From Flaccisagitta enflata (Eukaryota): a stretch of DNA of 64,000 nt. The notes below the pieces were generated by a model. That model did no database searches. It was not told the origin of the DNA and worked only from the letters and a program-made list of their open reading frames with translations. Location: positions 6,634,001 to 6,698,000 of the forward strand of contig OZ231126.1 in the NCBI GenBank assembly GCA_965153355.1. Direction: 5' to 3'. Each line of letters opens with the position of its first letter. Within the stretch, counting starts at the first letter, position 1. Position numbers and translations under genes: made by a program. Positions 1,390 through 63,273 of the stretch are shown piece after piece.

Positions 1390-2292
1390 TAAGTGCCATA
1401 CTTAGGCATTGTTGGATTGGAAGGCAATAAAACAAATGTGTCATTTTTCCCATTTTTGTTGTAGTTTGGCACTCTGTGCATTCTTGGAGTGACAATAAGG
1501 AGGATAGGAAAGTTAGGCACAAACAAGTTAATCTTGCCACTTTTGTTCAAGTTGGGCACTCTCGGCATTCTTGGAGTGACAAGTGGGAGGAAAGGAAATT
1601 TAGGCACAAATCAGTTAATTTCGCCATTTTTGTTCTAGTTTGACACTCTGTGCATTCTTTGAGTGACAAGTAAGAGGAATGGAAAGTTAGGCACAAATCA
1701 GTTAATCTCGCCATTTTTGTTCTAGTTTGGCACTCTGTGCATTCTTGGAGTGACAAGTGGGAGGAAAGGAAAGTTAGGCACAAATCAGTTAATCTCGCCA
1801 TTTTTGTTCTAGTTTGGCACTCTGTGCATTCTTGGAGTGACAAGTGGGAGGAAAGGAAAGTAAGGCACAAATCAGTCAATCTCGCCATTTTTGTTCTAGT
1901 TTGACACTCTGTGCATTCTTGGAGTGACAAGTAAGAGAAAAGGAAATTTAGGCACAAATCAGTTAATCTCGCCATTTTTGTTCTAGTTTGGCACTCAGTG
2001 CATTCTTGGAGTGACAAGTAAGAGGAAAGGAAATTTAGGCACAAATCAATTAATCTCGCCATTTTTGTTCTAGTTAGACACTCTGTGTATTCTTGGAGTG
2101 ACAAGTAAGAGGAAAGGAAATTTAGGCACAAATCAGTTAATCTCGCCATTTTTGTTCTAGTTTGACACTCTGTGCATTCTTGGAGTGACAAGTGGGAGGA
2201 AAGGAAAGTTAGGCACAAATCAGTTAATCCTGCCATTTTTGTTCTAGTTTGGCACTCATTGCATTCTTGGAGTGACAAGTGGGAGGAAAGGA
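1390..2292. repeat. 87-bp minisatellite, ~10 copies
   Basis: TTGGAGTGACAAG recurs at an 87-bp period; explains the 29-aa periodic ORF 1547-2413. Confidence 0.92.
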
Positions 2293-2414
2293 AACGAGGA
2301 AAATCATTCTTTCCATCATCGGTAAACCATTTCAAACTGAATTCAAAATGAGGCAGAGAGAATTTGTTTACAATGTAATCACCTTGTGTCAATATCTCTC
2401 TGGATACATTCACT

Positions 2415-9917: not shown

Positions 9918-11075
9918 TGAATTGGCAGCCACTGGAGAGATGAACAGACCCGCAAACCAACTGCTCATACACACAGAAATTGGCAGCTACCGGAGAGATG
10001 AACAGACCAGCAAACCAACTGCTTATAGACACGTAAATTAGCAGCCGCTGGAGAGATGAACAGACAGACAAAGCAATCGCTCACAGACACGGAATTTGGA
10101 AGCCACTGGAGAGATGAACGGACCAACAAACCAACTGCTCATAGACAAGGAGATTGGCAACCGCTGAACAGATGAATGGACCAACAAACCAACCGCTCAT
10201 GGACACGAAAATCGGCAGCCGCTGGAGAGATGTATGGACAGACAAACCAACTGCTCATAGACACGGAGATTGGCAGCCGCTGGAGAGATGAATGGACCGA
10301 CAAACCAACCACTCATGGAAACAGAAATTTGCAGCCATTGGAGAGATGAACGGACCGACAAACCAACTGCTCATAGACACGGGATTGGCAGCCACTGGAG
10401 AAATGAATTGACAGAAAACCAACTGTCTATAGACACGGAAATTGGCAGCCACTGGAGAGATGAATGGACAGACAAACCAACCACTCATGGAAACGGAAAT
10501 TGGGCCGCTGGAGAGATGAATGGACAGACAAACCAACCACTCATAGACACGGAAATTGGCAGCCACTGGAGAGATAGATGGACAGACAAACCAACTGTCC
10601 ATAGACACGGAAATTGGCAGCCACTGGAGGGATGAATGGACAGACAAACCAACCGCTCATAGACACGGAAATTGGCAGATGCTGGAGAGATGAATGGACC
10701 GACAAACCAACTGTCTGTAGACACGGAAATTGGCAGCTGCTGGAGAGATGAATGGACCAACAAACCAACCGCTCATAGACACGGAAATTGGCAGCCACTG
10801 GAGAGATGACTGGACAGACAAACCAACTGTCCATAGACACGGAAATTGGCAGCCGCTGGAGAGATGAATGGACAGACAGATAAATTGCTCATGGACACGG
10901 AATTTTGCATATGATGGAGAGACAAACAAACAGACAAACTGCTTATAGACACAGAAATTGGCATACGATGGAGAGATGAACAATCAGACAAACTAACCGC
11001 TCATAGACATGGAAATTGGCATAAGATGGAGAGATAAACAGACAGACAGACAAGAAAATTGGCATACGGTGGAGA
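9918..11075. repeat. 58-bp minisatellite, ~20 copies
   Basis: GACACGGAAATTGGCAGCCACTGGAGAGATGAATGGACAGACAAACCAAC units. Confidence 0.92.
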
Positions 11076-13249: not shown

Positions 13250-15110
13250 GCGTGACTTTTCCCTTTTCTCTCTCCCTTTCCTTCAATGTTCTCCTTACTA
13301 TCTTTTACGGAAATTTCCCCTTTCTCCTTTCTCTTGCCTTTTCCTTTATTGTTTTCCTTACTCTTTTTTTCTTTTCTCTTTTCTCTTCCCTTTTCCTTCA
13401 ATGTACCCCTTACTCTCTATCTGGAAACTTCCCTATTGTCCTCTCTCTTGCCTTTTCCTTCATTGTTTTCCTTATTCTCTTTTTCTTCTCTCTTTTCTCT
13501 CACCCTTTCCTTCAATGTTCTTCTTACTCTCTTTCCGGAAATTTCCCTATTCTCCTTTCTCTTGCCTCTTCCTTCATTGTTTTCCTTCCTCTCTTTTTCT
13601 TTTCTTTTTTCTCTTGCCCTTTCCTTCAATGTTCTCCTTACTCTCTTTTACGGAAATTTCCCTTTTCTCCTTTCTCTTGCCTTTTCCTTCATTGTTTTCC
13701 TTATTCTCTTTTTCTTTTCTCTTTTCTCTTGCCTTTTCCTTCAATGTTCTCCTTACTATCTTTTACGGAAATTTCCCTTTTCTCCTTTCTCTTGCCTTTT
13801 CCTTCATTGTTTTCCTTACTCTCTTTTTCTTTTCTCTTTTCTCTTGCCTTTTCCTTCAATGTACCCCTTACTCTCTTTTACAGAAATTTCCCTTTTCTCC
13901 TCTCTCTTGCCTTTTCCTTCATTGTTTTCCTTATTCTCTTTTTCTTCTCTCTTTTCTCTCGCCCTTTCCTTCAATGTTTTTCTTACTCTCTTTCCGGAAA
14001 TTTCCCTATTCTCCTTTCTCTTGCCTTTTCCTTCATTGTTTTCCTTCCTCTCTTTTTCTTTTCTTTTTTCTCTTGCCCTTTCCTTCAATGTTCTCCTTAC
14101 TCTCTTTTACGGAAATTTCCCTTTTCTCCTTTCTCTTGCCTTTTCCTTCATTGTTTTCCTTATTCTCTTTTTCTTTTCTCTTTTCTCTTTTCTCTTGCCT
14201 TTTCCTTCAATGTACCCCTTACTCTCTTTTACAGAAATTTCCCTTTTCTCCTCTCTCTTGCCTTTTCCTTCATTGTTTTCCTTATTCTCTTTTTCTTCTC
14301 TCTTTTCTCTCGCCCTTTCCTTCAATGTTCTTCTTACTCTCTTTCCGGAAATTTCCCTATTCTCCTTTCTCTTGCCTTTTCCTTCATTGTTTTCCTTCCT
14401 CTCTTTTTCTTTTCTTTTTTCTCTTGCCCTTTCCTTCAATGTTCTCCTTACTCTCTTTTACAGAAATTTCCCTTTTCTCCTCTCTCTTGCCTTTTCCTTC
14501 ATTGTTTTCCTTATTCTCTTTTTCTTCTCTCTTTTCTCTCGCCCTTTCCTTCAATGTTCTTCTTACTCTCTTTCCGGAAATTTCCCTATTCTCCTTTCTC
14601 TTGCCTTTTCCTTCATTGTTTTCCTTCCTCTCTTTTTCTTTTCTTTTTCCTCTTGCCTTTTCCCTCAATGTTCTCCTTACTATCTTTTATGGAAATTTCC
14701 CTTTTCTCCTTTCTCTTGCCTTTTCCTTCATTATTTTCTTTATACTCTTTTTCTTTCCTTTTTTTTCTCGCCCTTTCCTTCAATGTTCTTCTTACCCTCC
14801 TTTACGGAAATTTCCCACTCCTCTTTTCTCTTGCCTTTTCCTTCGTTGTTTTCCTTACTCTCTTTTTCTTCTCTCTTTTCTCTTGCCCTTTCCTTCAATG
14901 TTCTCCTTACTCTCTATCTGGAAACTTCCCTTTTCTCCTTTCTCTTGCCTTTTCCTTCATTGTTTTCCTTATTCTCTTTTTCTTCTCTCTTTTCTCTTGC
15001 CTTTTCCTTCAATGTACCCCTTACTCTCTTTTACGGAAATTTCCCTTTTCTCCTTTCTCTTGCCTTTTCCTTCATTGTTTTCCTTACTCTTTTTTTATTT
15101 TCTCTTTTCT
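13250..15110. repeat. ~115-bp polypyrimidine satellite, ~16 copies, with ~3-unit higher-order structure
   Basis: CCTTCAATGT...GGAAATTTCCC recurs every ~115 bp; the + strand is overwhelmingly C/T. Confidence 0.92.
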
Positions 15111-15852
15111 CTTTAGTCTCTTTTCCGTCCCTTTCCGTCCCTTTCCGCCTTCTTTCCTTTCTTCATCAATTTCAGTCGCTGCTTAAATCCTCTTTAGACT
15201 TTACTCGATACTCACTCGCTTCGCTTTGCTTGATCCAACAATCTCTCACTCGCTCACTTCCTAGAATCATTTACTATCAAACCGCTCATTAATCGGACAA
15301 TGATGGGGTCAAGGTGTTTCACTTTCAGCGAAAACAGCAAAAAGATGAGTAAAGAGTGACCGACCGTGTCATGAATTGGGGATGAAAAGAACTTGAACAA
15401 CTGACCAAAGTCACGTTGGTGTTTTGACATCAGAATCTCCGTGAATGAATGAATGGACACTCGTATGAATGGATGAATGGATGAATGGATGAATGGATGA
15501 GTGGATGAATGAATGAACGAATAAAGAAAAGAAAAAATATTAGATGTGTCCTAAGAAAAACTGTAAAAAGCCAAATCAATTACAAAAAAAAAAAAAAAAA
15601 AGAAGAAAAAAAGAAAAAAAAAACGTAGAAAAGGACTCACCGACAAACCAATGCACGGATCGAAGGGTTGCTTCTAGATCCGCGTAGCACGCTGCTAAAA
15701 AAAACCAACACGTTTCTCTCTTCTTTCCTCCTTTCTTTTTTCTCTTTTTGTACCGATTAAACATTCATTATAAATGTGGATTCCTCCTTCTACTTCTCAG
15801 GTAAGTGGATTTGTATTTCCCATGAGTTAATTCTCTGTAGAACAGTTAAAGG

Positions 15853-29083: not shown

Positions 29084-29336
29084 AACTTAGGTCTGCCGTT
29101 GATATGTTATAAAGAAAGAATTGACTGAAAGACTGATTGTTTTGTGCTCTTAGTATAAAGATAGAATAATAGTTTGTGAGTTATTTATTTCTTCAACTGA
29201 TTTCAGAGGACCAGTGAATGGTGACGACAAAATGTATGAAGAAAAATTGCATAAAGGGAATCAGATTTATGCTACAGACTATTTCAGTGTTTATCAAGCA
29301 TACTAAATATATTACGATACTAAAATTTATACATTA

Positions 29337-29946
29337 CGCTGAGGAGAATACATTTTTTTTCATGCGGGGACCCAGAGGAGGGCCCAGATTTTTTTTATTT
29401 TGATGTAACTAATGTATTATAAAAATTTCAGGACCATAGCCGTTCTTAAACCTTCATCATATTGCACCTGAAAAATGGTTCATCCTTAAGGGGGCCAAAA
29501 TTTCAAAATCATTTTTCCTCAAATTTAATGCCAGATTCAGATTCCTTGTGAAAATCTTTGTCAGATACTGTATTTTCTTTTACCAAAATTTTGTTTTTAA
29601 ACTGAAAAAATGCAAAAAACCTCCAAAAATAAGGGTTTCTAAAAAACAAAGTCTTTTCAGAGGTTTTTTGCTTTTTTTTCAGCTTAAAAACAAAATTTTG
29701 AAAAAGGAAAATATAGTATCTGACAAAATTTTTTACAAGGAATCTGAATCTGGCATCAGTTCTGGGGAAAAATGAATTTGAAATTTTGGCCCCCTTCAGG
29801 ATGAGCCATATTACAAGTGCAATATCATGAATGTTCAAGAACATCTATAGTCCTGAAATTTTTAGAATAAATTAGTTACATCAAAATGATAATATCTGGG
29901 CCCTCCTCTGGGTCCCTGTATGAAAAAAAGTGTATTCTCCTCAGCG
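29337..29946. mobile_element. TA-flanked foldback element (610 bp, palindromic)
   Basis: TA|CGCTGAGGAGAATACA...GGGACCCAGAGGAGGGCCCAGAT ... ATCTGGGCCCTCCTCTGGGTCCC...TGTATTCTCCTCAGCG|TA; arms pair to ~29640. Confidence 0.9.
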
Positions 29947-30546
29947 TATTATACATGTTTCCGCAGATGAACATCAAAATGTTTTAGTGAGTTAGTTGCA
30001 AATTTCCTAGCGAGCCTTCTGTACCAGAAGTTGAACAATCAATGAGCAAGGTAAACGTTGAAAATGAAGGCAGAAATAAAGAACTACATATCAGTCAAAG
30101 GTAAAAGGAATCGAATTCCAAACTGGCTCCAAAAAACAATGTAGATGAGAAAATATGATATTCCCACTTTGAAAAGTAACGTGGTATCTACTGGCAAAAT
30201 AGCAAGTATACAATGAAAGGATGTTTAGTGCTACAACAATGTCATCAAAATACGGTAAACTTCCTTCTCTAACGGACAAAAGGGATATATGTTTGTTGTT
30301 TGTAGTCTTTCTTCAGCTGTTTCATGAAATCAGTATGAAAAAAAACTAGAAATTTGCATCTTTTATCTGGAAATTCCGTCACTAGGTGGTCTGTCAGAGC
30401 GAGATTAACAGCGTGCAATCTAGGTACGTGGGCAAGTATAAAGATACATCCCTGGCCAAGTGTTTTTATCTGAGGAGTCTAAAAGCCTTGGTCCCAAAAG
30501 GCTGTGATAAACAGTTATAAAGATATGAGCCCATGTTTGATAAAGT

Positions 30547-30552
30547 TTTATT
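30547..30552 (-). terminator. Candidate polyadenylation signal of the receptor gene
   Basis: AATAAA on the minus strand about 430 nt after the stop codon. Confidence 0.35.
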
Positions 30553-30976
30553 TTGAAAAACACAAAAATTACCCATTTTGAGTTTTGCTATTTTTCTTTT
30601 GGTTTCTGCAGAAAAAATTTTAGTCACCCATGCCATTTTTCCTCTCTATGACGGCCCAAAGTAAAAAAAAAAGAAAGCCTAATTGTATACGGTTTTCTTT
30701 CTTGGCCTTGCAATTCAATATGGGGTTGTATGTAAAAGAAAAAAAAAAGCAACTTGCATAATGGCAGTCCATCATGTAGTGATGCCAGTCTAGTAATGAT
30801 TGTGGAAAAAAAGACATTCTCTACAACTACCAAAAAATCCATGATTTTGGTTTTACACTGTGATGGTGATGCTGTGTTGATGTGAATACTGGGAAGTAAA
30901 GTGCTTGTAAAAAGAGTTCCGATTTTCCTCCTGTTGCTTTGAGGAATATGATTACATCATCGCTCGAGATTTCCAT

Positions 30977-33900
30977 CTACAATTCACCCACATTCCTTGG
31001 GATGAACTCCACAACAAAAGGTAAGTTGATGAAATTGAGCTCGGCCAAATTCTGCTTATCTGAAAGCAGCACTCCGCCTGATCGCACCAGCCAATTTCCA
31101 TCAGTCACATCTCGATGCATCTTTGCCAAAAGGCCTTTCACCGCCTTGACGTTGTAGGTCGGTTTGATTTCCATCTTTATAGATGGCTGCCCACTCTTTG
31201 CAAACTCAATCCTGATTTCGGGTTTAAGAACTTCCAAAGTCGAACCCTCTGCGATGTGTAAGTTTGCATCTCTAATTGACGCCGTCGTTTCCACTGCAAA
31301 TTCCTCCTCTTGAATCGGATTTGGAATAACCTTTCCCTTGCATTTCAGTAAGAGGCTCTTGAAAGGGATGTCCTCTTCCATGCTTTTGACCAATTCTGTC
31401 ACTTTTCCGAAAATGTCGCTGAAATGAATGGAAGATCTTAATCTTTCCAGTTTAACCTGTCGCTCAACCGAACCATCCAAAGAGCCGTACTTAATGGTGA
31501 CATGGCTCTCCGTCTGAAGTGGAGCCAAGTGTCCTTGCATCAATCCTTCAGCGCAAGCTTGTTGCTCCAATTGTTCATAAGCCAATGCGTAGAGTTTTGG
31601 CATCGATTCAGTTCTCTCGCCTTTGAAAAATTTGAGGAAACAAAGATAAGAGTGAGGATAAAAGAATGGCAATCTGGAGAGAAAATAGAGAAGAATCTCC
31701 TGGAGGCTCGGTTTTGGCTTCCCACACATGATCAGCATGGACGCCGGGTTCTCGTGACCGTGTTGCAGTATGTTACGAATGAATCGCAACAGGTCCACGT
31801 AAGTCGTTATGTCAAGGGTGTTTCTACCCAAACCAAATTCCTCCATGACCACATCATCGATCTTCTTGTTCCACCCTCCAAGCCCGCCAATGACGAGGCA
31901 CGCGTTTTTCTCAGCTTCGGCGAACATCCACTTCATGGCTTTGTTGTTCTTTTGCCCTTTGAGCGAAGCGTTCAATTCGGATAAGATGGAAATCTTGTTG
32001 TCCGTGGATTGAAAGGCGGGAGTTTGAAGTGCCTCGGCCGCGGTCATTCCTCTTTGGAGAGCAAAGATCAATGAACACAAGTCAACGTTGGATAAACCCA
32101 CAAGATTCTCAATATTGACTGGATGAGAGGATGATTTTCCAGATACAAGATAAAAAATGATGTTGGCGACTGCGCTTATATCCTTTTGTTGTTCTTGGAT
32201 GTTGGTGGTCCCCAATAACGGCGTTTCTTCCATGGCCATTTCCAATGATCCGATGCAGGCTTGATGAAAACCACCCAGCTTTACCACCCACTTTCCAGTG
32301 GTATTGTCAAATCTGACAAATACAGATTCGATGGAGATATTGCGGTGAAAGATAGGACATTCTTGAGATTGCAAAAAGTCGACGGCGCCCAAAATTTGGT
32401 GGCAAATATCAACAACATCGAATGATGAACCATTGAAAAGCCCGCACAACTGTGCATCAAGAATAGAAGCATCAACCTTTTCAACAAACATATGGCCCAC
32501 CCTCTTAATGAATGGAAACCATGTGACAAAGGAAGTGTGAAGTCTGATGATGTTTGGATGATTGATCTGACCCAGAATCTTTACCTCTCTCCTGAAAGAT
32601 TCTTTTCCATCGCGATTTTCCATCAAAAACCGAACATGAAGATACTTTTTTCCCAATTTCTTGGCATAAATTGATTTACCCATTTGATACGAGAGTGCCG
32701 CTGCTAAAACTGCAAATATTCCTACACAACTGTATGGCACCACTTTCAGCTCTAAGATACATTCCATCACATGCGCGTGAAATTTTCCATCATCTCTGCA
32801 GCTGATGTTTTGTGGGAGGTTTTTAATGACTGTCCTTAACATATCTACGACATTGCATTCATTACAAAAGAAATCATTCCCTTCTAAGTAAACTTTTGTC
32901 TGTGGTAATAGCGAAAATTGAGATGGAAGTTTCAACAAGTTATTATACCTCAAGTCCAATGCTGAAAGATTTCTCATTAATAGCAATGAAGGACCATCGA
33001 TGCTGCTTATTTTGTTCCCTTGACAATCTAACGATGATATGTTTTCCAGATTAGACGAAAACTTGACAAACTCAAGTTCATTTTTGGAGAAGTCAGCGAA
33101 TATTTGGTCGTATGGCAGGCAAGAGGGTAAATTGTTGAGATTTCTTGAAGCACAGTTCATTTGCAGTATGTTTTTGCTCCATTGGCATGAGCAGGGTGTT
33201 GGACAGCATGGTATAGGTCCAAACTGTGGTAAGAAATGCATCAAAGTTCTATCATTCCATGAGCAGCTGCAAATCCATGGATTTTTGGCAAGGTACACTT
33301 TTTTTAAGCTGTTGATCTTTTGCATAGTTTGAGGCCTTATGTTAGAAATATGGTTACCGTATACATCAAGAGTTTTTAGTTCAGGCAACCCTTCTATGAA
33401 AGAAATGTTTTTCAGTTGATTGCTGTGCAGGAAAAGTTCCTTCATTGTAGAATCCTGGAATTGGTTCATATCAATCTCCTCGATTTGATTATGGCTTAAG
33501 TTAAGAGCAACAAGGGCGTCATATTCGTCGCCATCGATGCGACCACTAAAGTGTTTGATTCTGTTGTGACTTAAGTCCAGAGGTTCGATAGGGATAGATA
33601 TGAAGCAAAAGCTGTCAGGCTCAATGGTCGAAATTTTGTTACCCTGAAGCTTCAAACTCATAGTGAACCCTGTTGGAACGTCATTGTCTTTGAAGAAAGA
33701 AAAGTCACTGGTTGAAATTGTTTCAATCATGTTATTGCTGAGATCTAAAAACTCCAGAGTGACGAGACCTATGAAAGATACGAATTTCAGATTTTGTATT
33801 CTATTGTGGCCAAGACTTAGTTTTCTTAATCGGGTACAGTTTGAAAACGCACCGTTTTCTATATTGGTAATTTGGTTGTAGTCAAGATCCAGAATCTCAA

Positions 33901-35179
33901 GTTCTTTTTGATCATCAAAAACTCGGCTTTGAATTCGTGTCAAACGATTGCGACAGAGATGTAAGTCACGTAGATCTGTTTGCCCTTTCAATAAAAGTGG
34001 ATGAATATCCTCGATACGATTATCACCTAGACTAAGGCTATCAAGATGAAGATCGTGAAATGCATATACATCAATCACGCTCACGTGGCAGAATTGGATC
34101 CACAAATCGCTGAGATGTTTTATATTTTTGAACATATTTCGTGTTAATGTTGTAATTGGACTAATTCTTATGTCTAGCGTTTTCGTGTTCAACTCAAGAA
34201 ATGGAGGGATTTCAGTGAGACAATGTCCAATCTTAACATAATCCATCACAGTCTTAGTCACTAGACTTTTTGCACCCAGTGTAATATTTGTCTTGCAACA
34301 TGGGTTTCTCGAGGGTGATCCGAGGTCAATGTCCTGCATAACAGTTGAATTGATAAAACCTGTGGGTATGGATTCGATTGGATTGTTAGTCAATTCTAAA
34401 ATAATTAAACTAGACAAAGGACGTATGAACTTGATTTGTTCCGAGGATAGGTTGTTTGAATCAAGATACAAAGTCCACAAATCTCTTAGGTGATCGAATG
34501 CATTTGGATGAATCGTGGATATTTCATTTCCCTCTAGTATCATATGCTTCAAACCGACTTGGTTCTTAAAAAGATCTTTTTCAATTTTGTTAAATCGTGT
34601 ATTACATATCCATATTTGTTGCAAGTTGATCATCCCGTCAAAAACCCCCACCTCGATGTCAGTCAGTTGAGAGTCATAAAACCCAACATGACGAAACGAT
34701 TTTTGATTCGTTCCAGAAAAAAAATGTTTCCCTATACTCATTAAACGGCTACCAAACAAAGCAAAGGAACTTATGTGTTTATAATCTGATAAAAATCCAT
34801 CTTCAATCTTTTCTAAATTCAACTCAGGAAGAAACATGATGGTGAACAAAGGTTTCGTTGAGGCATTGAAGAGGAACGGAAAATTAGGATTGTCTGTTTT
34901 CGCATTTTTCATTATGTCCCGCGTCACGACAGTGCAACCCATTCTTCTATAGCGCCAACTACATCCCCAGTCGTCCCAACCCTTCTCAAACTTTTCGTGG
35001 CAAATGAGCTCACAGTCCGCCGCTTCTTCTCCATGAAAATGCGTCGCTGAATCCAGAAAAATTTCTTCTGGATTTTTCGGAGGCTCCTTGGAAAAGGACG
35101 TCATTCTGTATGCCACGGTATTGAACGCCATAAGCAGAAGAAGCCACACGATGGACCAACGAGCATCCATCATCCCCAT
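30977..35179 (-). CDS. Single-pass receptor, ~1400 aa: signal peptide, Toll-like LRR ectodomain, TM, pseudokinase, KEN (IRE1/RNase L-type) ribonuclease, 2x ubiquitin-like
   Basis: Uninterrupted 4.2-kb high-complexity ORF. The track start at 35263 is a TTG; the first ATG is at 35179 (GTG-ATG-G context) and is followed by hydrophobic WSIVWLLLLMAFNTVA. Many LxxLxLxxNxI repeats; NPWICSC, CPTPCSC and NDFFCNEC caps; hydrophobic VVPYSCVGIFAVLAAALSY then basic KKLGKK; kinase motifs REVKIL/HPNIIRL/HRN/VKLGGF; KEN motif DLLRFIRNILQH...YFLSRLP; ubiquitin-like C-terminal pair. Confidence 0.93.
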   Translation of the reverse strand: MGMMDARWSIVWLLLLMAFNTVAYRMTSFSKEPPKNPEEIFLDSATHFHGEEAADCELICHEKFEKGWDDWGCSWRYRRMGCTVVTRDIMKNAKTDNPNFPFLFNASTKPLFTIMFLPELNLEKIEDGFLSDYKHISSFALFGSRLMSIGKHFFSGTNQKSFRHVGFYDSQLTDIEVGVFDGMINLQQIWICNTRFNKIEKDLFKNQVGLKHMILEGNEISTIHPNAFDHLRDLWTLYLDSNNLSSEQIKFIRPLSSLIILELTNNPIESIPTGFINSTVMQDIDLGSPSRNPCCKTNITLGAKSLVTKTVMDYVKIGHCLTEIPPFLELNTKTLDIRISPITTLTRNMFKNIKHLSDLWIQFCHVSVIDVYAFHDLHLDSLSLGDNRIEDIHPLLLKGQTDLRDLHLCRNRLTRIQSRVFDDQKELEILDLDYNQITNIENGAFSNCTRLRKLSLGHNRIQNLKFVSFIGLVTLEFLDLSNNMIETISTSDFSFFKDNDVPTGFTMSLKLQGNKISTIEPDSFCFISIPIEPLDLSHNRIKHFSGRIDGDEYDALVALNLSHNQIEEIDMNQFQDSTMKELFLHSNQLKNISFIEGLPELKTLDVYGNHISNIRPQTMQKINSLKKVYLAKNPWICSCSWNDRTLMHFLPQFGPIPCCPTPCSCQWSKNILQMNCASRNLNNLPSCLPYDQIFADFSKNELEFVKFSSNLENISSLDCQGNKISSIDGPSLLLMRNLSALDLRYNNLLKLPSQFSLLPQTKVYLEGNDFFCNECNVVDMLRTVIKNLPQNISCRDDGKFHAHVMECILELKVVPYSCVGIFAVLAAALSYQMGKSIYAKKLGKKYLHVRFLMENRDGKESFRREVKILGQINHPNIIRLHTSFVTWFPFIKRVGHMFVEKVDASILDAQLCGLFNGSSFDVVDICHQILGAVDFLQSQECPIFHRNISIESVFVRFDNTTGKWVVKLGGFHQACIGSLEMAMEETPLLGTTNIQEQQKDISAVANIIFYLVSGKSSSHPVNIENLVGLSNVDLCSLIFALQRGMTAAEALQTPAFQSTDNKISILSELNASLKGQKNNKAMKWMFAEAEKNACLVIGGLGGWNKKIDDVVMEEFGLGRNTLDITTYVDLLRFIRNILQHGHENPASMLIMCGKPKPSLQEILLYFLSRLPFFYPHSYLCFLKFFKGERTESMPKLYALAYEQLEQQACAEGLMQGHLAPLQTESHVTIKYGSLDGSVERQVKLERLRSSIHFSDIFGKVTELVKSMEEDIPFKSLLLKCKGKVIPNPIQEEEFAVETTASIRDANLHIAEGSTLEVLKPEIRIEFAKSGQPSIKMEIKPTYNVKAVKGLLAKMHRDVTDGNWLVRSGGVLLSDKQNLAELNFINLPFVVEFIPRNVGEL
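30980..31504 (-). other. Two tandem ubiquitin-like domains (aa ~1254-1347 and ~1349-1428)
   Basis: Ubl2 IRIEFAKSGQPSIKMEIKPTYNVKAVKGLLAK...WLVRSGGVLLSDKQNLAELNF parallels ubiquitin [30 protein letters not shown]...LIFAGKQLEDGRTLSDYNI. Ubl1 ends LLLKCKGKVI...SIRDANLHIAEGSTLEVL (cf. LSDYNIQKESTLHLVL). Confidence 0.7.
31628..32011 (-). other. KEN / RNase_2-5A ribonuclease domain (aa ~1085-1212)
   Basis: Colinear by eye with the IRE1/RNase L KEN domain: PAFQSTDNKISILSELN (cf. HPFFWS..KQLQFFQDVSD), GWNKKID (cf. DWRENIT), DLLRFIRNILQH (cf. DLLRAMRNKKHH / DLLKFIRNLGEH), YFLSRLPFFYPHSY (cf. YFTSRFPHLLAHTY). Confidence 0.88.
32009..32644 (-). other. Protein kinase-like domain, predicted catalytically dead (aa ~874-1085)
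   Basis: LHVR (VAVK equivalent), FRREVKILGQINHPNIIRL, ICHQILGAVDFLQSQECPIFHRNISIESVFV, VVKLGGF, KDISAVANIIFYLVSG, TAAEALQTPAF. No GxGxxG; HRD is HRN; no DFG. Confidence 0.85.
32681..32746 (-). other. Transmembrane helix (aa ~840-861)
   Basis: VVPYSCVGIFAVLAAALSYQM directly after the LRRCT, followed by GKSIYAKKLGKK (positive-inside rule). Confidence 0.8.
32759..34846 (-). other. LRR ectodomain, multiple-cysteine-cluster (Drosophila Toll-type) layout
   Basis: About 20 LRRs (e.g. LEILDLDYNQI, LRKLSLGHNRI, LEFLDLSNNMI), LRRCT NPWICSC (aa 661), internal LRRNT CPTPCSC...NCASRNL (aa 687-709), ~3 more LRRs, second LRRCT NDFFCNEC...C...C (aa 796-835); about ten N-x-S/T sequons. Confidence 0.9.
35111..35179 (-). 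other. Signal peptide (aa ~29-51)
   Basis: MGMMDARWSIVWLLLLMAFNTVA|Y: basic residue, hydrophobic core, small residues (T-V-A) before the likely cleavage site. Confidence 0.8.
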
Positions 35180-35207
35180 CACGAAGGTGCAAACAGGATG
35201 ACCGTAT

Positions 35208-35249
35208 CTTTTAGAAAACGGGAAAAGGGAATAATAAACAAAATTAGTA
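35208..35249 (-). promoter_or_regulatory. Probable 3' splice acceptor of a 5'-UTR intron
   Basis: Minus strand TACTAAT (branch-point-like), then TTTGTTTATTATTCCCTTTTCCCGTTTTCT (pyrimidine tract), then AAAAG; the ATG lies 28 nt downstream. Confidence 0.6.
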
Positions 35250-36056
35250 CCGCCGCTGCTCAAGCTATTGTTTGCATTTTGGTGTATTGGTATTCAGTTT
35301 CTTATGATTCTGAATCTCTTGAAAACCCTATGGACTGGTAAGCCTCTCAGTTTGTCTATATGTCGGTCTGTCTGTCTGTCCATCTTTCCGTCAGTTTATC
35401 TAACTGGCTGTCTAACTGTCTATCTATCTGTCTGTTTCTCTCTGTCTGTGTCTATGTCTGTGTGTTACTATGTAATTTGTGTTCATGCACATCTATGTCA
35501 TCATATAGGTGAATGGGTGGTGATGAGGAGGTGATTGGGGGGTGACAGGTACTTATTTTTTGTGGTGGTGGGATCCGGAGCACTGTGTGTCATGTGTAAA
35601 ACTCAGGCGGAAAAGAACTTAATGATAAGGAAAAAAACAAACAAACAAACATAATATACTTCTTGTTGGTCTAGTACGACAAAAGTTTTACTGAAGGGCT
35701 TTCAAACCTTTGGGCTGCTACGACAAAAGAAATTGTCTCGCTAAGCCAACGAGAAGAGTCCTTTCATATTCTTTATGCTAAAGCATTTTTCCGCCTTCTT
35801 ATTGCACATTTGTTATGTAACCTTGGGGACATAAAAAATGGCGAATTTTGGAAAACTAAATCTATCTACCTTAATTTGAAAAAAAAACTATAAACAAGGC
35901 CAACACCTATAAGTCGCGTGCAGGACATAAATAGCTTAAGATGACTAAAATTGAGTTTAAATGACTCAAGGTGACCTGAAATGACTTAATTCTTAAAATG
36001 ACTTAAAATAACTTTAATGACCATATTGACCTTATTGACTTTAGTGACTTCATATA

Positions 36057-36411
36057 CCATATTTTCTCCATTTATCGCCCCCCCCTCCAATTAACGCCCC
36101 CCCTATTTTTCTTCTCTAGATTGTTGATAAATGGGAAGAAGAAAAGGCAAATTGTCAAAGATTTTGAATTTTTTCAGTGCTTTTTCAGTGCTTTTTCAGC
36201 GCTTTCATTGAAAATAGGCAAAAAAAATCATATCAAAATCACTTCATTGTACTTTATCTTATAATTCTGATATTTCAAGTAGTATTCATGGTAAAAAACG
36301 TTAGATAACAATGTACGTTTATATCAAAAGGGGGCGCTAATTGGAGGGTAAAATGACAATGTCATTTTTCAATTTCAAAAGCGCCCGGGGCGCTAACTAG
36401 AGAAAATACGG
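36057..36411. mobile_element. pogo/Tigger-like MITE inserted in a family-A element
   Basis: TA|CCATATTTTCTC...CGCCCC ... GGGGCG...GAGAAAATACGG|TA. Confidence 0.75.
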
Positions 36412-37850
36412 TAACTTAACATGACTTAAAATGACTTAAAATGACTTAGAATGACTTATAATGGCATTTGGGAAGGAGCCCGAAAAGCTTAAAAACGCCA
36501 AAAAAGTAAAAAGGGGACCGACCGACCGACCGACCAACTGACCAACCGACGGACCAACAAAGCGTAGCATGCGACTAAAAATTGGTGATCATTTTGAAGC
36601 TCTGCGTGATCTTTCAAATGAGACGATGCTGGTTGTCCTAGCTTTATCTGTTTAAAAATTGCACTGGGATGAAGTCAGGTTGTCAGGAATTTGAGAATTT
36701 GCTACAGCATTTGCATGTTTTTCGTTTTATCTGTGGTTAATAGAAGTAGGAAAGATAAAAGTTCAGATAGAGAAGAAACTTAACAAGAGGAAAGTGAAAG
36801 AGAAGAAATATAACAAGATGAAAGTGAAAGGTTTAGTTTGAAAGGAGGAAAAATTAGAATAGACAGGCCTAACCAGAGCGGGCTGTGGACCGTCTTAAAA
36901 ATAAGGCTGGGTTAAAGCTTCCATCCCCAATTTATCTCTGGTAAAAATTTTTGAAAAGAGCTCTACATATCATACCTGTCATTCATCAATTGACTAATGC
37001 CAATTGACGAATAACAAATATGAAAGTAAGCATCCCTTCCATTATTAACAAAGAAAAAAGGAAAAAGAAATGTTACGGTGAAAATGAAAGGCGAAATGAA
37101 AAGTTACAGTAAAAGCAAAATTGTACATGAGGATAACAGAATGAAAAAAAAAAAAAAGTGTGAAAATTAGAGAGCAAAAAGCTTAGAAAAGAAAGAGAAA
37201 TGGTGGAAAGGAAAGAATGAACCCTCAGGAGAAGGCTTCTGAAAAGTAAACATCAACTGAAGCCCTCAGTGACCATAAAACAGGTGACCACTGAGAGAAG
37301 AATGGTGAAAGTAAGAGGATTAAGAGGAAGGAATGAAAAATTGACCAATAAGAGGGCAAACAGACACATGAGCACATCAAGTATCATACTGGCAAGAAAA
37401 ATGAGAAAGAGCAATGGAAAAATAAGATAGAAGAGATAGTCAAGATAACTATCAGTTTATAGTTAGAATTATAAAAACAATTATCATAGATCAATAAAAT
37501 AAATTGAATTAAGATAAACCAAATCAAATCTGACAAATTTGAAACAAAAATAAAATAGAATCAGACTAAATCAAACCTAATTAGATTTAAAATATGCATA
37601 CCAGTCTCTAAAGGAGAATGTCCAGACCTCCGAATTCCCACCCATACAGAAGTGCAAAATTCAAAATATTTAGCTAATTTCTAGTTAGTTAACTATTTCA
37701 AATTAATCTATTTTACTAACTCTAAGGAGGGAGGGGAATGGTGTTAACCTTTCAGAGCTAGGCTACATAATAGCATCTAGATGAAAGCAATATAATAAAT
37801 TCAGGCTACATAATAACATCTGAATTTATTATATTGAGCTAGCTAAAAAG

Positions 37851-62259: not shown

Positions 62260-63065
62260 CATGCTAAAACCGCTGATTTTAACGGGTTTAACGCCAAAAT
62301 CCCTTTTTTTGGCCCTCTGCATGCTAATTTGACATCATGAGACCCTCAAAAAGAGCAAGTGAGCACACATGAGCAGGCATGAGCAAGCATGAGCAAGAAT
62401 GCTAAATCCGCTGATTTTAACAGGTTTAACTTCAAATCCCTTAAGTTGGTCCTCCACATGCTTTTTTAACATCATGAGACCCTCTATGGTGACAATAAAG
62501 AGCAAGTGAGCACACATGAGCAAGCATGAGCAAGCATGAGCAAGAATGCTAAATTCGCTGATTTTAACGGGTTTAACATAAATGTCCCCTATTTTGACCC
62601 TCCACATGCTTATTTGACATCATGAGACTCTCTACGGTTATAAAAGAGAGCATGTGAGCACACATGAGCAAGCATGAGATAACATGAGCAAGAATGCTAA
62701 ATCCGCTGATTTTAACGAGTTTAACATAAATATCCCCTAATTTGACCCTCCACACCATTATTTGACATCATGAGACTCTCTAAGGTTACAAAAGAGAGCA
62801 AGTGAGCACACATGAGCAAGCATGAGCAAGAATGCTAAATCCGCTGATTTTAACCGGTTTAACATAAAAATCCCCTGTTTTGGTCCTCCACATGCTTATT
62901 TGACATCAAGAGACCATCTATGGTGACCATAAAGAGTAAGTGAGCACACATGAGTAAGCATGAGCAAGCATGCTTAATCTGCTGATTCTAACATGTTTAA
63001 CATAAAAATCCCCTATTTTGGTCATCCACATGCTGTTTTGACATCAAGAGACCCTCTATGGTGAC
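62260..63065. repeat. ~120-130-bp satellite, ~6 copies
   Basis: GAGCACACATGAGCAAGCATGAGCAAGAATGCTAAATCCGCTGATTTTAAC units. Confidence 0.85.
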
Positions 63066-63273
63066 AAAAAAAATCTCTCTTAATTCAAAATCAACACCAT
63101 GCTGGTTCAAGTCCTTTTTAATTTTGCTCAACTCACATCTTAATTTTGAATGCGACAACAATACAACTAAACATGGAAGGAATATATGATGGAATTCAAT
63201 AGTAATCCTGAAATTGCACTGTTTGTATCATGTATTTCGTCATCCCGTTTTCATTTTCCTGTTCTGTGCCCAG

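Follow-up and report, generated by a model that had tools for sequence, protein, structure and literature searches.

The gene described here lies in a window of 64,000 nucleotides from Flaccisagitta enflata (assembly GCA_965153355.1, contig OZ231126.1, positions 6,634,001 to 6,698,000 of the forward strand; all coordinates below are those of this whole stretch), and it encodes in one uninterrupted open reading frame (ORF) a leucine-rich repeat (LRR) ectodomain, a transmembrane (TM) segment, a pseudokinase, a domain of the kinase-extension nuclease (KEN) type known from IRE1 and RNase L, and two tandem ubiquitin-like (Ubl) domains (Table 1). An earlier note, made from the letters alone, had read one continuous frame here, with a signal peptide, LRRs with cysteine caps, a TM segment, a kinase-like domain, a KEN motif and two Ubl-like domains, and without a TIR domain; the frame, of 1400 codons on the minus strand, proved to lie exactly where it had been placed, and each of these parts was recovered. 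The start ATG is at 35179 and the stop codon ends at 30977, within a stop-to-stop frame of 1438 codons, and a signal-peptide-like N-terminus follows directly after the first ATG. This is the sole long ORF of the window outside tandem-repeat sequence. Among ten other long frames scanned against Pfam, nine had no family at all, while the tenth (1550-2413, minus strand), which lies within an 87-bp tandem array, had matches below or barely at the cut-offs. Tandem and simple repeats dominate the rest of the window (48 rows), the long frames found there being repeats, and the gene is an island within repeat-rich eukaryotic DNA.

Table 1. Features of the gene and its 3' flank, with amino acid (aa) positions in the predicted protein and nucleotide (nt) positions in the window.
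Feature	Position	Strand	Basis
Complete intronless coding sequence (CDS), 1400 aa plus stop	30977..35179	minus	ORF scan; ATG in G-3/G+4 context
Probable signal peptide, aa 1-25	35105..35179	minus	Read by eye: a hydrophobic stretch of 12 residues after Arg7
LRR ectodomain, aa 26-806, with 10 NxS/T sequons and 25 Cys	32762..35104	minus	LRR_8, LRR_4, LRR_5 and LRR_1 matches plus motif count
Internal LRRCT-like/LRRNT-like cysteine cluster, aa 633-690, dividing the LRRs into two blocks	33110..33283	minus	Patterns at aa 633 and 659
LRRCT-like cap with four Cys next to the membrane, aa 766-807	32759..32884	minus	Cys 772, 775, 794 and 807; read by eye
Single TM helix, about aa 813-833, with Lys-rich cytosolic sequence after it	32681..32743	minus	Hydropathy
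Predicted pseudokinase with reduced N-lobe, aa 834-1058	32006..32680	minus	Pkinase and WNK1 matches, model secondary structure, motif columns
KEN (HEPN) domain, aa 1059-1195	31595..32005	minus	PF06479 plus fold match
L1122, aligned with the auxiliary catalytic Tyr of canonical KEN proteins (yeast Y1043), 13 residues ahead of the Arg	31814..31816	minus	Alignment with canonical KEN proteins
Catalytic HEPN motif R1135-N1136-I-L-Q-H1140	31760..31777	minus	HMMER alignment to human IRE1 RN-x3-H
Ubl domain 1 (beta-grasp), aa 1225-1285	31325..31507	minus	Strands and helix of the tail model (residues 8-68); Foldseek over both domains
Ubl domain 2, aa 1308-1394	30998..31258	minus	Structural matches
Possible polyadenylation signal AATAAA, about 425 nt 3' of the stop	30547..30552	minus	Hexamer match only, without RNA support

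The cytosolic part (aa 834-1400) has an IRE1/RNase L-type kinase-KEN fold in its predicted structure. These residues were aligned with 45 relatives (alignment A1), and an AlphaFold2 model of them reached a mean pLDDT of 92.9 and a pTM of 0.88. In a Foldseek search with this model all of the matches listed, down to rank 47, were to the kinase-RNase part of IRE1, the best being 3lj0_B (E 2.8e-14, 402 columns). VIA re-alignment placed model residues 1-362 on residues 564-962 of human IRE1 (Z 21.7, 328 residues, rmsd 3.8) and on residues 354-728 of the RNase L chain (Z 18.9, 311 residues), whereas plain kinases scored Z 16.5 at most, with coverage ending at model residue 225. Because only IRE1 and RNase L match both domains, the kinase-plus-KEN arrangement of the model is specific to the IRE1/RNase L kind, which bears out the assignment that the earlier note had made. 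Comparison by ESM Atlas features, which provides leads only, returned generic kinase clusters (0.90-0.92), a TBK1/IKK-epsilon kinase-ULD cluster at rank 3 and IRE1-like clusters at ranks 11 and 19. A homodimer predicted from two copies of aa 834-1217 scored 0.00 and 0.00; having been run without alignment or controls, it is uninformative on binding.

The domain next to the membrane is a kinase fold in reduced form. The Pfam Pkinase profile matches it with 31.7 bits, exactly at the cut-off and through profile positions 39-145 only, WNK1 is matched by sequence at E 6e-6, and the fold match confirms the assignment. G834 directly follows the TM stretch, with only 12 residues between it and the first strand, and the N-lobe of the model consists of a juxtamembrane helix, three strands and helix C, without a Gly-rich loop. 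With the motif columns set by P0035, the one canonical-looking relative (VAVK, HRD, DFG), this protein has V849 in the column of the beta3 Lys, HRN947 for HRD and G970-F-H for DFG. The same positions drift throughout the family, the HRD Asp being kept in 2 of 21 rows, the DFG Asp in 6 of 21 and the beta3 Lys in 5 of 15. The residues of an active IRE1-type kinase are thus replaced at V849, N947 and G970, and the nucleotide and Mg motifs expected of an RNase L-type nucleotide-binding pseudokinase are likewise absent from the sequence, RNase L being a pseudokinase that still binds nucleotide. We therefore predict that the kinase is catalytically dead, and more degenerate than that of RNase L or IRE1, and that it would act as a scaffold only. 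Two relatives, P0007 and P0008, each gave two or three alignments to the pseudokinase C-lobe region (aa 921-1070), which suggests that they may carry internally duplicated pseudokinase segments before the KEN domain.

The KEN domain itself is recognized by PF06479 (Ribonuc_2-5A) at E 3.5e-10, with 40.5 bits against a cut-off of 23.3, over aa 1080-1185, and in the model it forms the all-helical KEN fold packed on the kinase C-lobe. Its main HEPN motif is intact and shared across the family: in alignment A1, R1135 is present in 28 of 29 rows, N1136 in 27 of 29 and H1140 in all 28, the exceptions in these columns coming from P0042 and a poorly aligned fragment, P0018. The Arg and His have the Rx4-6H spacing of HEPN RNases, with a polar residue after the Arg. 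In yeast Ire1 the equivalent R1056 and N1057 are reported to coordinate the scissile phosphate, and the H1061N change to lower the rate by a factor of at least 3e5 (Korennykh et al., 2011; PMC3149027). Since the R, N and H residues are kept while the kinase residues drift, selection appears to act on the RNase site and not on the kinase, and the primary catalytic apparatus is, to judge by its residues, intact. The auxiliary Tyr column is less uniform: across 24 rows it holds Tyr in 14, His in 7 and a single Leu (this protein), Gln and Asp, with His in the closest relatives and Tyr in more distant ones. The corresponding Y1043F change in yeast Ire1 is reported as an approximately tenfold loss (PMC3149027), and HEPN RNases in general are described as needing only Rx4-6H (PMC3710099).

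C-terminal of the KEN domain no Pfam family was matched, and the two Ubl-like domains were recovered through structure instead. A model of the tail (aa 1218-1400, from a 36-row alignment, A2) has a pLDDT of 91.4 and comprises two beta-grasp units. Foldseek matched it to linear di-ubiquitin (E 3e-9 to 1e-7) and to ISG15 (E 1e-7 to 1e-6), with alignments of 173-188 columns that span both domains at 15-20% identity. An all-against-representatives structure search, which bears on the second unit and hardly tested the first, gave the Get5 UBL (Z 9.8), the parkin Ubl (Z 9.6) and the chicken OASL di-Ubl (Z 8.8), with a lowest Z of 8.0. The protein ends in ...PRNVGEL. Because it has no C-terminal di-Gly, the tail is an integral, non-conjugatable Ubl pair, as in OASL, and it is kept in every family member that reaches that far.

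On the other side of the TM segment the protein is built of LRRs. Pfam LRR_8 matches at E 8.6e-66 in 11 stretches, and a strict LRR pattern finds 18 repeats at a spacing of 22-26 residues; the ectodomain has about 20 LRRs. The internal cysteine cluster is made of an LRRCT-like NPWxCxC pattern at aa 633 that leads directly into an LRRNT-like CPxxCxC pattern at aa 659, where the Pfam LRRNT match is weak (E 0.35, aa 659-689). Kyte-Doolittle windows of 19 residues reach 1.6 or more only when they start at aa 807-813 (maximum 1.96), which makes this the sole hydropathy peak of that height, and equivalent TM segments are present in the relatives P0002, P0005, P0021 and P0007. With one TM segment, a positive-inside flank, and most of the sequons (10 of 14) and cysteines (25 of 36) N-terminal to it, the protein would have type I topology, its LRRs facing the outside or a lumen. 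Pfam at E values up to 1 found neither TIR nor TIR_2 in the protein, nor any ankyrin family, and N-terminal of the TM segment it found LRR families only, so that nothing resembling the IRE1-type luminal sensor is seen there. A search with aa 1-830 returned 58 matches at 20-32% identity, of which 13 carry TIR; the top ones were a multidomain LRR protein, amphioxus LRR-Ig proteins and insect chaoptins (the best at 23-31% identity), and BLASTP against three TIR-bearing matches gave 22-25% identity in many overlapping repeat alignments. The 'Toll-like receptor ectodomain' of the earlier note consequently describes a layout of LRRs, cysteine caps and TM segment, and not a demonstrated orthology.

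The whole order of domains recurs in relatives. An exhaustive HMMER scan with the cytosolic part returned 122 proteins at E <=1e-3, 42 at <=1e-10 and 13 at <=1e-30. P0005 (1457 aa) aligns collinearly with aa 56-1393 (36.6% identity) and carries a signal peptide (a hydrophobic N-terminus) and a TM segment of its own; P0002 (1300 aa, truncated at its 5' end) does so with aa 90-1392 (38% identity), and a third relative matches in two stretches. P0021 (1393 aa) combines LRR, TM, a weak Pkinase match and KEN, and P0007 begins within the LRRs and continues through TM and pseudokinase to KEN. The order LRR, TM, pseudokinase, KEN and tail is present in P0005, P0002 and P0021, and the architecture, being thus attested independently, is real. 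Twenty of the scan matches were looked up: 19 are family members, which occur only in ENA or Logan assemblies, where their contigs measure 1.1-6.6 kb, and the twentieth, P0044, is a plant protein with canonical kinase-KEN repeats that falls outside the family. The exact protein is absent from a collection of 15 billion proteins, and JGI metagenome contigs contained no relative, whether searched with a KEN alignment or with the single protein.

One relative departs from this plan in its sensor. P0132 (1599 aa) has an N-terminal LRR and Roc and the same divergent KEN at aa 1287-1407, and it aligns with aa 972-1381 of the present protein; the Ubl tail is probably present in it too. As the same module stands behind LRR-Roc, the pseudokinase-KEN unit seems also to sit on a ROCO-like chassis and looks like a shuffled cassette. 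We have met no description of a kinase-KEN RNase on a ROCO chassis, a form at which no search was aimed. Kinase-KEN RNases are known with two sensors, the luminal domain of IRE1 for unfolded proteins and the ankyrin repeats of RNase L for 2',5'-oligoadenylate (2-5A), and the earlier note had offered the present receptor as a third sensor class; with the module of P0132 behind LRR-Roc, the matter is not simply so.

Sequencing reads bear on the contiguity, copy number and expression of the gene. A run search identified X1 (0.87 of words) and X2 (0.25), both DNA runs of the same coded organism, together with two marine metagenomes whose shares were small and a polyA RNA run, X5, belonging to the same study; reads were mapped on positions 29500-37000 in 30 bins. 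X1 covers all 30 bins with no listed joint inside the ORF, which its contigs tile at single-copy-like depth, and together with the collinearity of the relatives across the TM junction this nearly excludes the mis-assembly that had been named as a possible refutation. Depth in X1 is about 80-120 over the LRR half (32763-35272) and 140-270 over the cytosolic half (31006-32762), dipping to 18.6 at 33014-33264, and the ORF is not spanned in full by any one short-read contig. X2 covers essentially the cytosolic half only, with differences that it has in common with the second contig set of X1. The doubled depth over the cytosolic half and the coverage in X2 suggest that there is another allele or a paralogue whose cytosolic module is nearly identical and whose ectodomain is more than 5% different or absent, and such a copy would fit diversification or swapping of ectodomains. 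The 28 differences listed within the CDS divide into 12 synonymous and 16 non-synonymous ones (a further 19 are unlisted, differences outside the CDS are excluded, and the sample is mixed and small); these are fewer replacements than neutral drift would give, which hints at purifying selection.

We conclude that the locus holds a real, intact gene for a predicted type I membrane receptor with an IRE1/RNase L-type pseudokinase-KEN module and a di-Ubl tail, and we favour, with moderate confidence, the reading that its product is a ligand-clustered receptor ribonuclease of innate immunity. The LRR ectodomain would face the outside of the cell or the lumen of an endosome, joined by its one TM segment to the cytosolic pseudokinase-KEN module. 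Binding of a ligand would cluster or dimerise the ectodomains and bring the modules together, with the dead kinase serving only as a dimerisation scaffold; the paired KEN domains could then form an RNA-docking surface at which the metal-independent R-N-x3-H sites would cut cytosolic RNA near the membrane, and the outcome would be an innate immune response that arrests translation or promotes RNA decay. The di-Ubl tail may restrain the module, or it may recruit ubiquitin-binding partners as the tail of OASL does. A more specific form of this reading, which we put forward tentatively, is that pseudokinase-KEN-diUbl is a portable RNA-cutting cassette in a lineage of marine eukaryotes, found on at least two chassis, the Toll-like LRR-TM form (this gene, P0002, P0005 and P0021) and the cytosolic LRR-Roc ROCO form of P0132, and that the gene encodes a true receptor ribonuclease which would trigger RNA decay by clustering, without TIR/MyD88 or 2-5A, the tail being either a ubiquitin-mimic signalling arm or an autoinhibitory one. 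On this form of the reading, what OAS, RNase L and OASL do in vertebrates would be combined in one polypeptide of independent origin.

Several results weigh against the favoured reading. With the Gly-rich loop and all three nucleotide/Mg ligands lost, activation or dimerisation assisted by nucleotide, as in IRE1 and RNase L, is unlikely here, and the replacement of the auxiliary catalytic Tyr by L1122 may slow or impair this copy. PF06479 is weak throughout the family (25-47 bits, against 120-145 in canonical IRE1-like proteins), and the KEN domain alone, searched against PDB sequences, reached IRE1 at just E 0.65, which is not significant. The ectodomain shows no specific orthology to Toll-like receptors (TLRs) in its sequence, 'Toll-like' describing its layout only. 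Finally, no RNA reads fell on the ORF in about 6% of X5 (12.2 million records), the 15 reads that mapped being all on the flanking repeats (35273-37000); this is weak evidence against strong expression in one sample, and nothing more.

The first two of these points feed the best of the alternatives, a receptor or scaffold that is non-catalytic or weakly catalytic and whose KEN domain binds RNA or partners without efficient cleavage. Such a protein could signal through the pseudokinase scaffold and the di-Ubl tail to ubiquitin-binding adaptors, as OASL does, or it could be a decoy or regulator of active paralogues. A Leu where 21 of the 24 family rows have Tyr or His, a fully degenerate kinase, and a conserved tail that resembles the non-conjugated tandem Ubl of OASL and ISG15 would all be at home in it. 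We nonetheless consider it rather unlikely, as the primary HEPN R, N and H are intact, the Tyr hydroxyl is reported to be worth just about tenfold in yeast Ire1 (PMC3149027), and the Rx4-6H core is described as sufficient for HEPN RNases in general (PMC3710099).

An alternative that keeps the ribonuclease and changes its place is a lumen-facing sensor of stress or cargo in the endoplasmic reticulum (ER) or the endolysosomal system, with the LRRs replacing the luminal domain of IRE1 and with decay of membrane-proximal mRNAs resembling regulated IRE1-dependent decay. The topology would be that of IRE1, which also ranks first among the structural matches, at Z 21.7 compared with 18.9 for RNase L, and the nucleic-acid-sensing TLRs of vertebrates are endosomal. 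On the other hand, no ER-retention or endosomal sorting signal was noticed, although none was searched for, and the sequence does not tell the compartments apart, so that this possibility differs from the receptor ribonuclease in location only; we regard it as less likely again.

It is also conceivable, if improbable, that the gene is a silent or dying copy, a recent duplicate amid repeats that looks intact but is not expressed and serves no function at present. The absence of RNA reads in X5, the very high-copy repeats on both flanks, a Leu at the Tyr column that none of the 23 other rows shares, and the absence of the exact protein from the 15-billion-protein collection agree with such a history. 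Yet a stop-free frame of 4.2 kb cannot last long without selection, and all other conserved family positions are kept; the RNA data, moreover, cover about 6% of a single run on one sample, and low-level or induction-dependent expression is common among immune receptors. Last, an assembly chimera of an LRR receptor gene with an unrelated kinase-KEN gene, at which the roughly twofold higher X1 depth over the cytosolic half, the dip at 33014-33264 and the lack of a short-read contig across the ORF might hint, is nearly excluded by the relatives with the same architecture (P0005 and P0002, from other assemblies and collinear across the TM junction; P0021 and P0007, which also carry LRR, TM, pseudokinase and KEN) and is at odds with a continuous frame that has no listed joint.

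Around the gene the window is of a different character. The flanks at 29500-30001 and 35273-37000 are repeats with depths of 1e4 to 2e6; in the upstream one (35273-37000) the summed contig depth reaches 2e6, with many joints that skip about 500 bases, from 35921 to 36420-36442. X1 and X2 each contain one contig in which 29948 is joined to 35891, so that 5942 bases, and with them the whole gene, are left out. As the join has just 24-25 letters on its shorter side, with both ends in very high-copy repeats, it is probably a repeat-to-repeat join, the alternative being a haplotype without the gene. Just downstream of the gene, at 29323-29960, lies a nested inverted repeat resembling a miniature inverted-repeat transposable element (MITE), with 228-nt arms of 86% complementarity and outer arms of 70 nt, within repeat at depths of 1e5. 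The idea that the gene itself belongs to a mobile element was rejected, as no direct repeats flank it and this MITE-like inverted repeat is all that is found downstream. Farther away, minisatellite arrays at 1450-2294, 9920-11048, 13256-15113 and 62261-63071 (87 bp x 9.7, 58 bp x 19.6, 115 bp x 16, and units of 138-286 bp, respectively) yield long spurious open frames in several reading frames. An antisense ORF of 160 aa inside the CDS (31502-31984, plus strand) is unsupported and probably due to chance.

The architecture appears to be new to the literature that was searched: queries on KEN, RNase L or IRE1 combined with LRR, TLR, transmembrane or invertebrate brought up no description of an LRR-TM-kinase-KEN protein, and the earlier note's impression that no LRR-TM-kinase-KEN-Ubl protein had been described holds to that extent. 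A survey of HEPN domains lists KEN fusions to kinase, ankyrin, CCCH, UBI and BRCT as well as solo expansions, with a KEN-ubiquitin domain fusion recorded for one plant protein (Anantharaman et al., 2013; PMC3710099). A study of the origins of RNase L distinguishes ten clades of RNase homologues, most of them with a kinase domain, and reports that RNase L is restricted to jawed vertebrates; its text mentions no LRR-bearing clade, although one could appear in its architecture figure or supplements (PMC10400998).

If the receptor ribonuclease reading is right, a receptor of the pattern-recognition type would carry its own RNA-degrading output in place of signalling through TIR adaptors. A family found behind both a Toll-like ectodomain and LRR-Roc would show an effector re-wired repeatedly to different innate sensors. 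The protein would offer a system for asking whether KEN activation needs nucleotide binding, the nucleotide site here being gone, what role tandem Ubl domains play beside an RNase, and by what route the immunity of invertebrates or protists arrives at RNA decay in the absence of interferon. The family is not yet in annotated databases, and annotation pipelines are missing it.

Among the closest known systems is IRE1 (Ire1p/ERN1), with which the predicted receptor would share type I topology, a sensor on the far side of the membrane, a cytosolic kinase fold followed by KEN, and the same R-N-x3-H motif, and which is its best structural match. The present protein differs in its LRR sensor, in a dead kinase without a Gly-rich loop, in a Leu for the auxiliary Tyr, in the extra di-Ubl tail and in a KEN sequence that has diverged far (40 bits, against 120-145 for canonical members). 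RNase L, the 2-5A-dependent enzyme of jawed vertebrates, likewise combines a pseudokinase with KEN and is an innate immune RNase activated by sensor-driven dimerisation, whereas here the ankyrin repeats and 2-5A sensor are missing, the protein is membrane-anchored and the nucleotide-binding motifs are absent. With Toll and the TLRs of the 'multiple cysteine cluster' type, the ectodomain shares a signal peptide, LRR blocks split by an LRRCT-LRRNT cluster, a membrane-proximal LRRCT and a single TM segment; unlike them it is followed by no TIR, and its similarity to TIR-bearing receptors (22-25%) is no better than that to chaoptin or LRR-Ig proteins. OASL and ISG15 offer the parallel of two tandem beta-grasp domains, in the known systems at the C-terminus of an antiviral-type protein, but identity is 13-20%, there is no di-Gly here as there is in ISG15, and the pair is joined to an RNase module, not an OAS fold.

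Two further comparisons concern the joining of parts. The 'Kinase TLRs' of choanoflagellates, described as LRR-TM-Pkinase-TIR proteins for which the authors proposed a bypass of adaptor recruitment (PMC6040629), also connect a TLR-like ectodomain directly to a cytosolic enzyme-type domain; as described there they keep TIR and have no KEN or Ubl, whereas here TIR is absent, the kinase would be a scaffold for an RNase, and KEN and Ubl domains follow it. The KEN fusions of the HEPN survey share the placing of KEN behind a kinase and, in the one plant protein, its joining to ubiquitin, and the catalogue given in that account includes no LRR ectodomain, TM receptor or ROCO form (PMC3710099). Set against the known kinase-KEN RNases as a whole, then, what is new in this protein is its sensor, its more reduced kinase and its Ubl appendage, which together make it a new variation and not a new kind.

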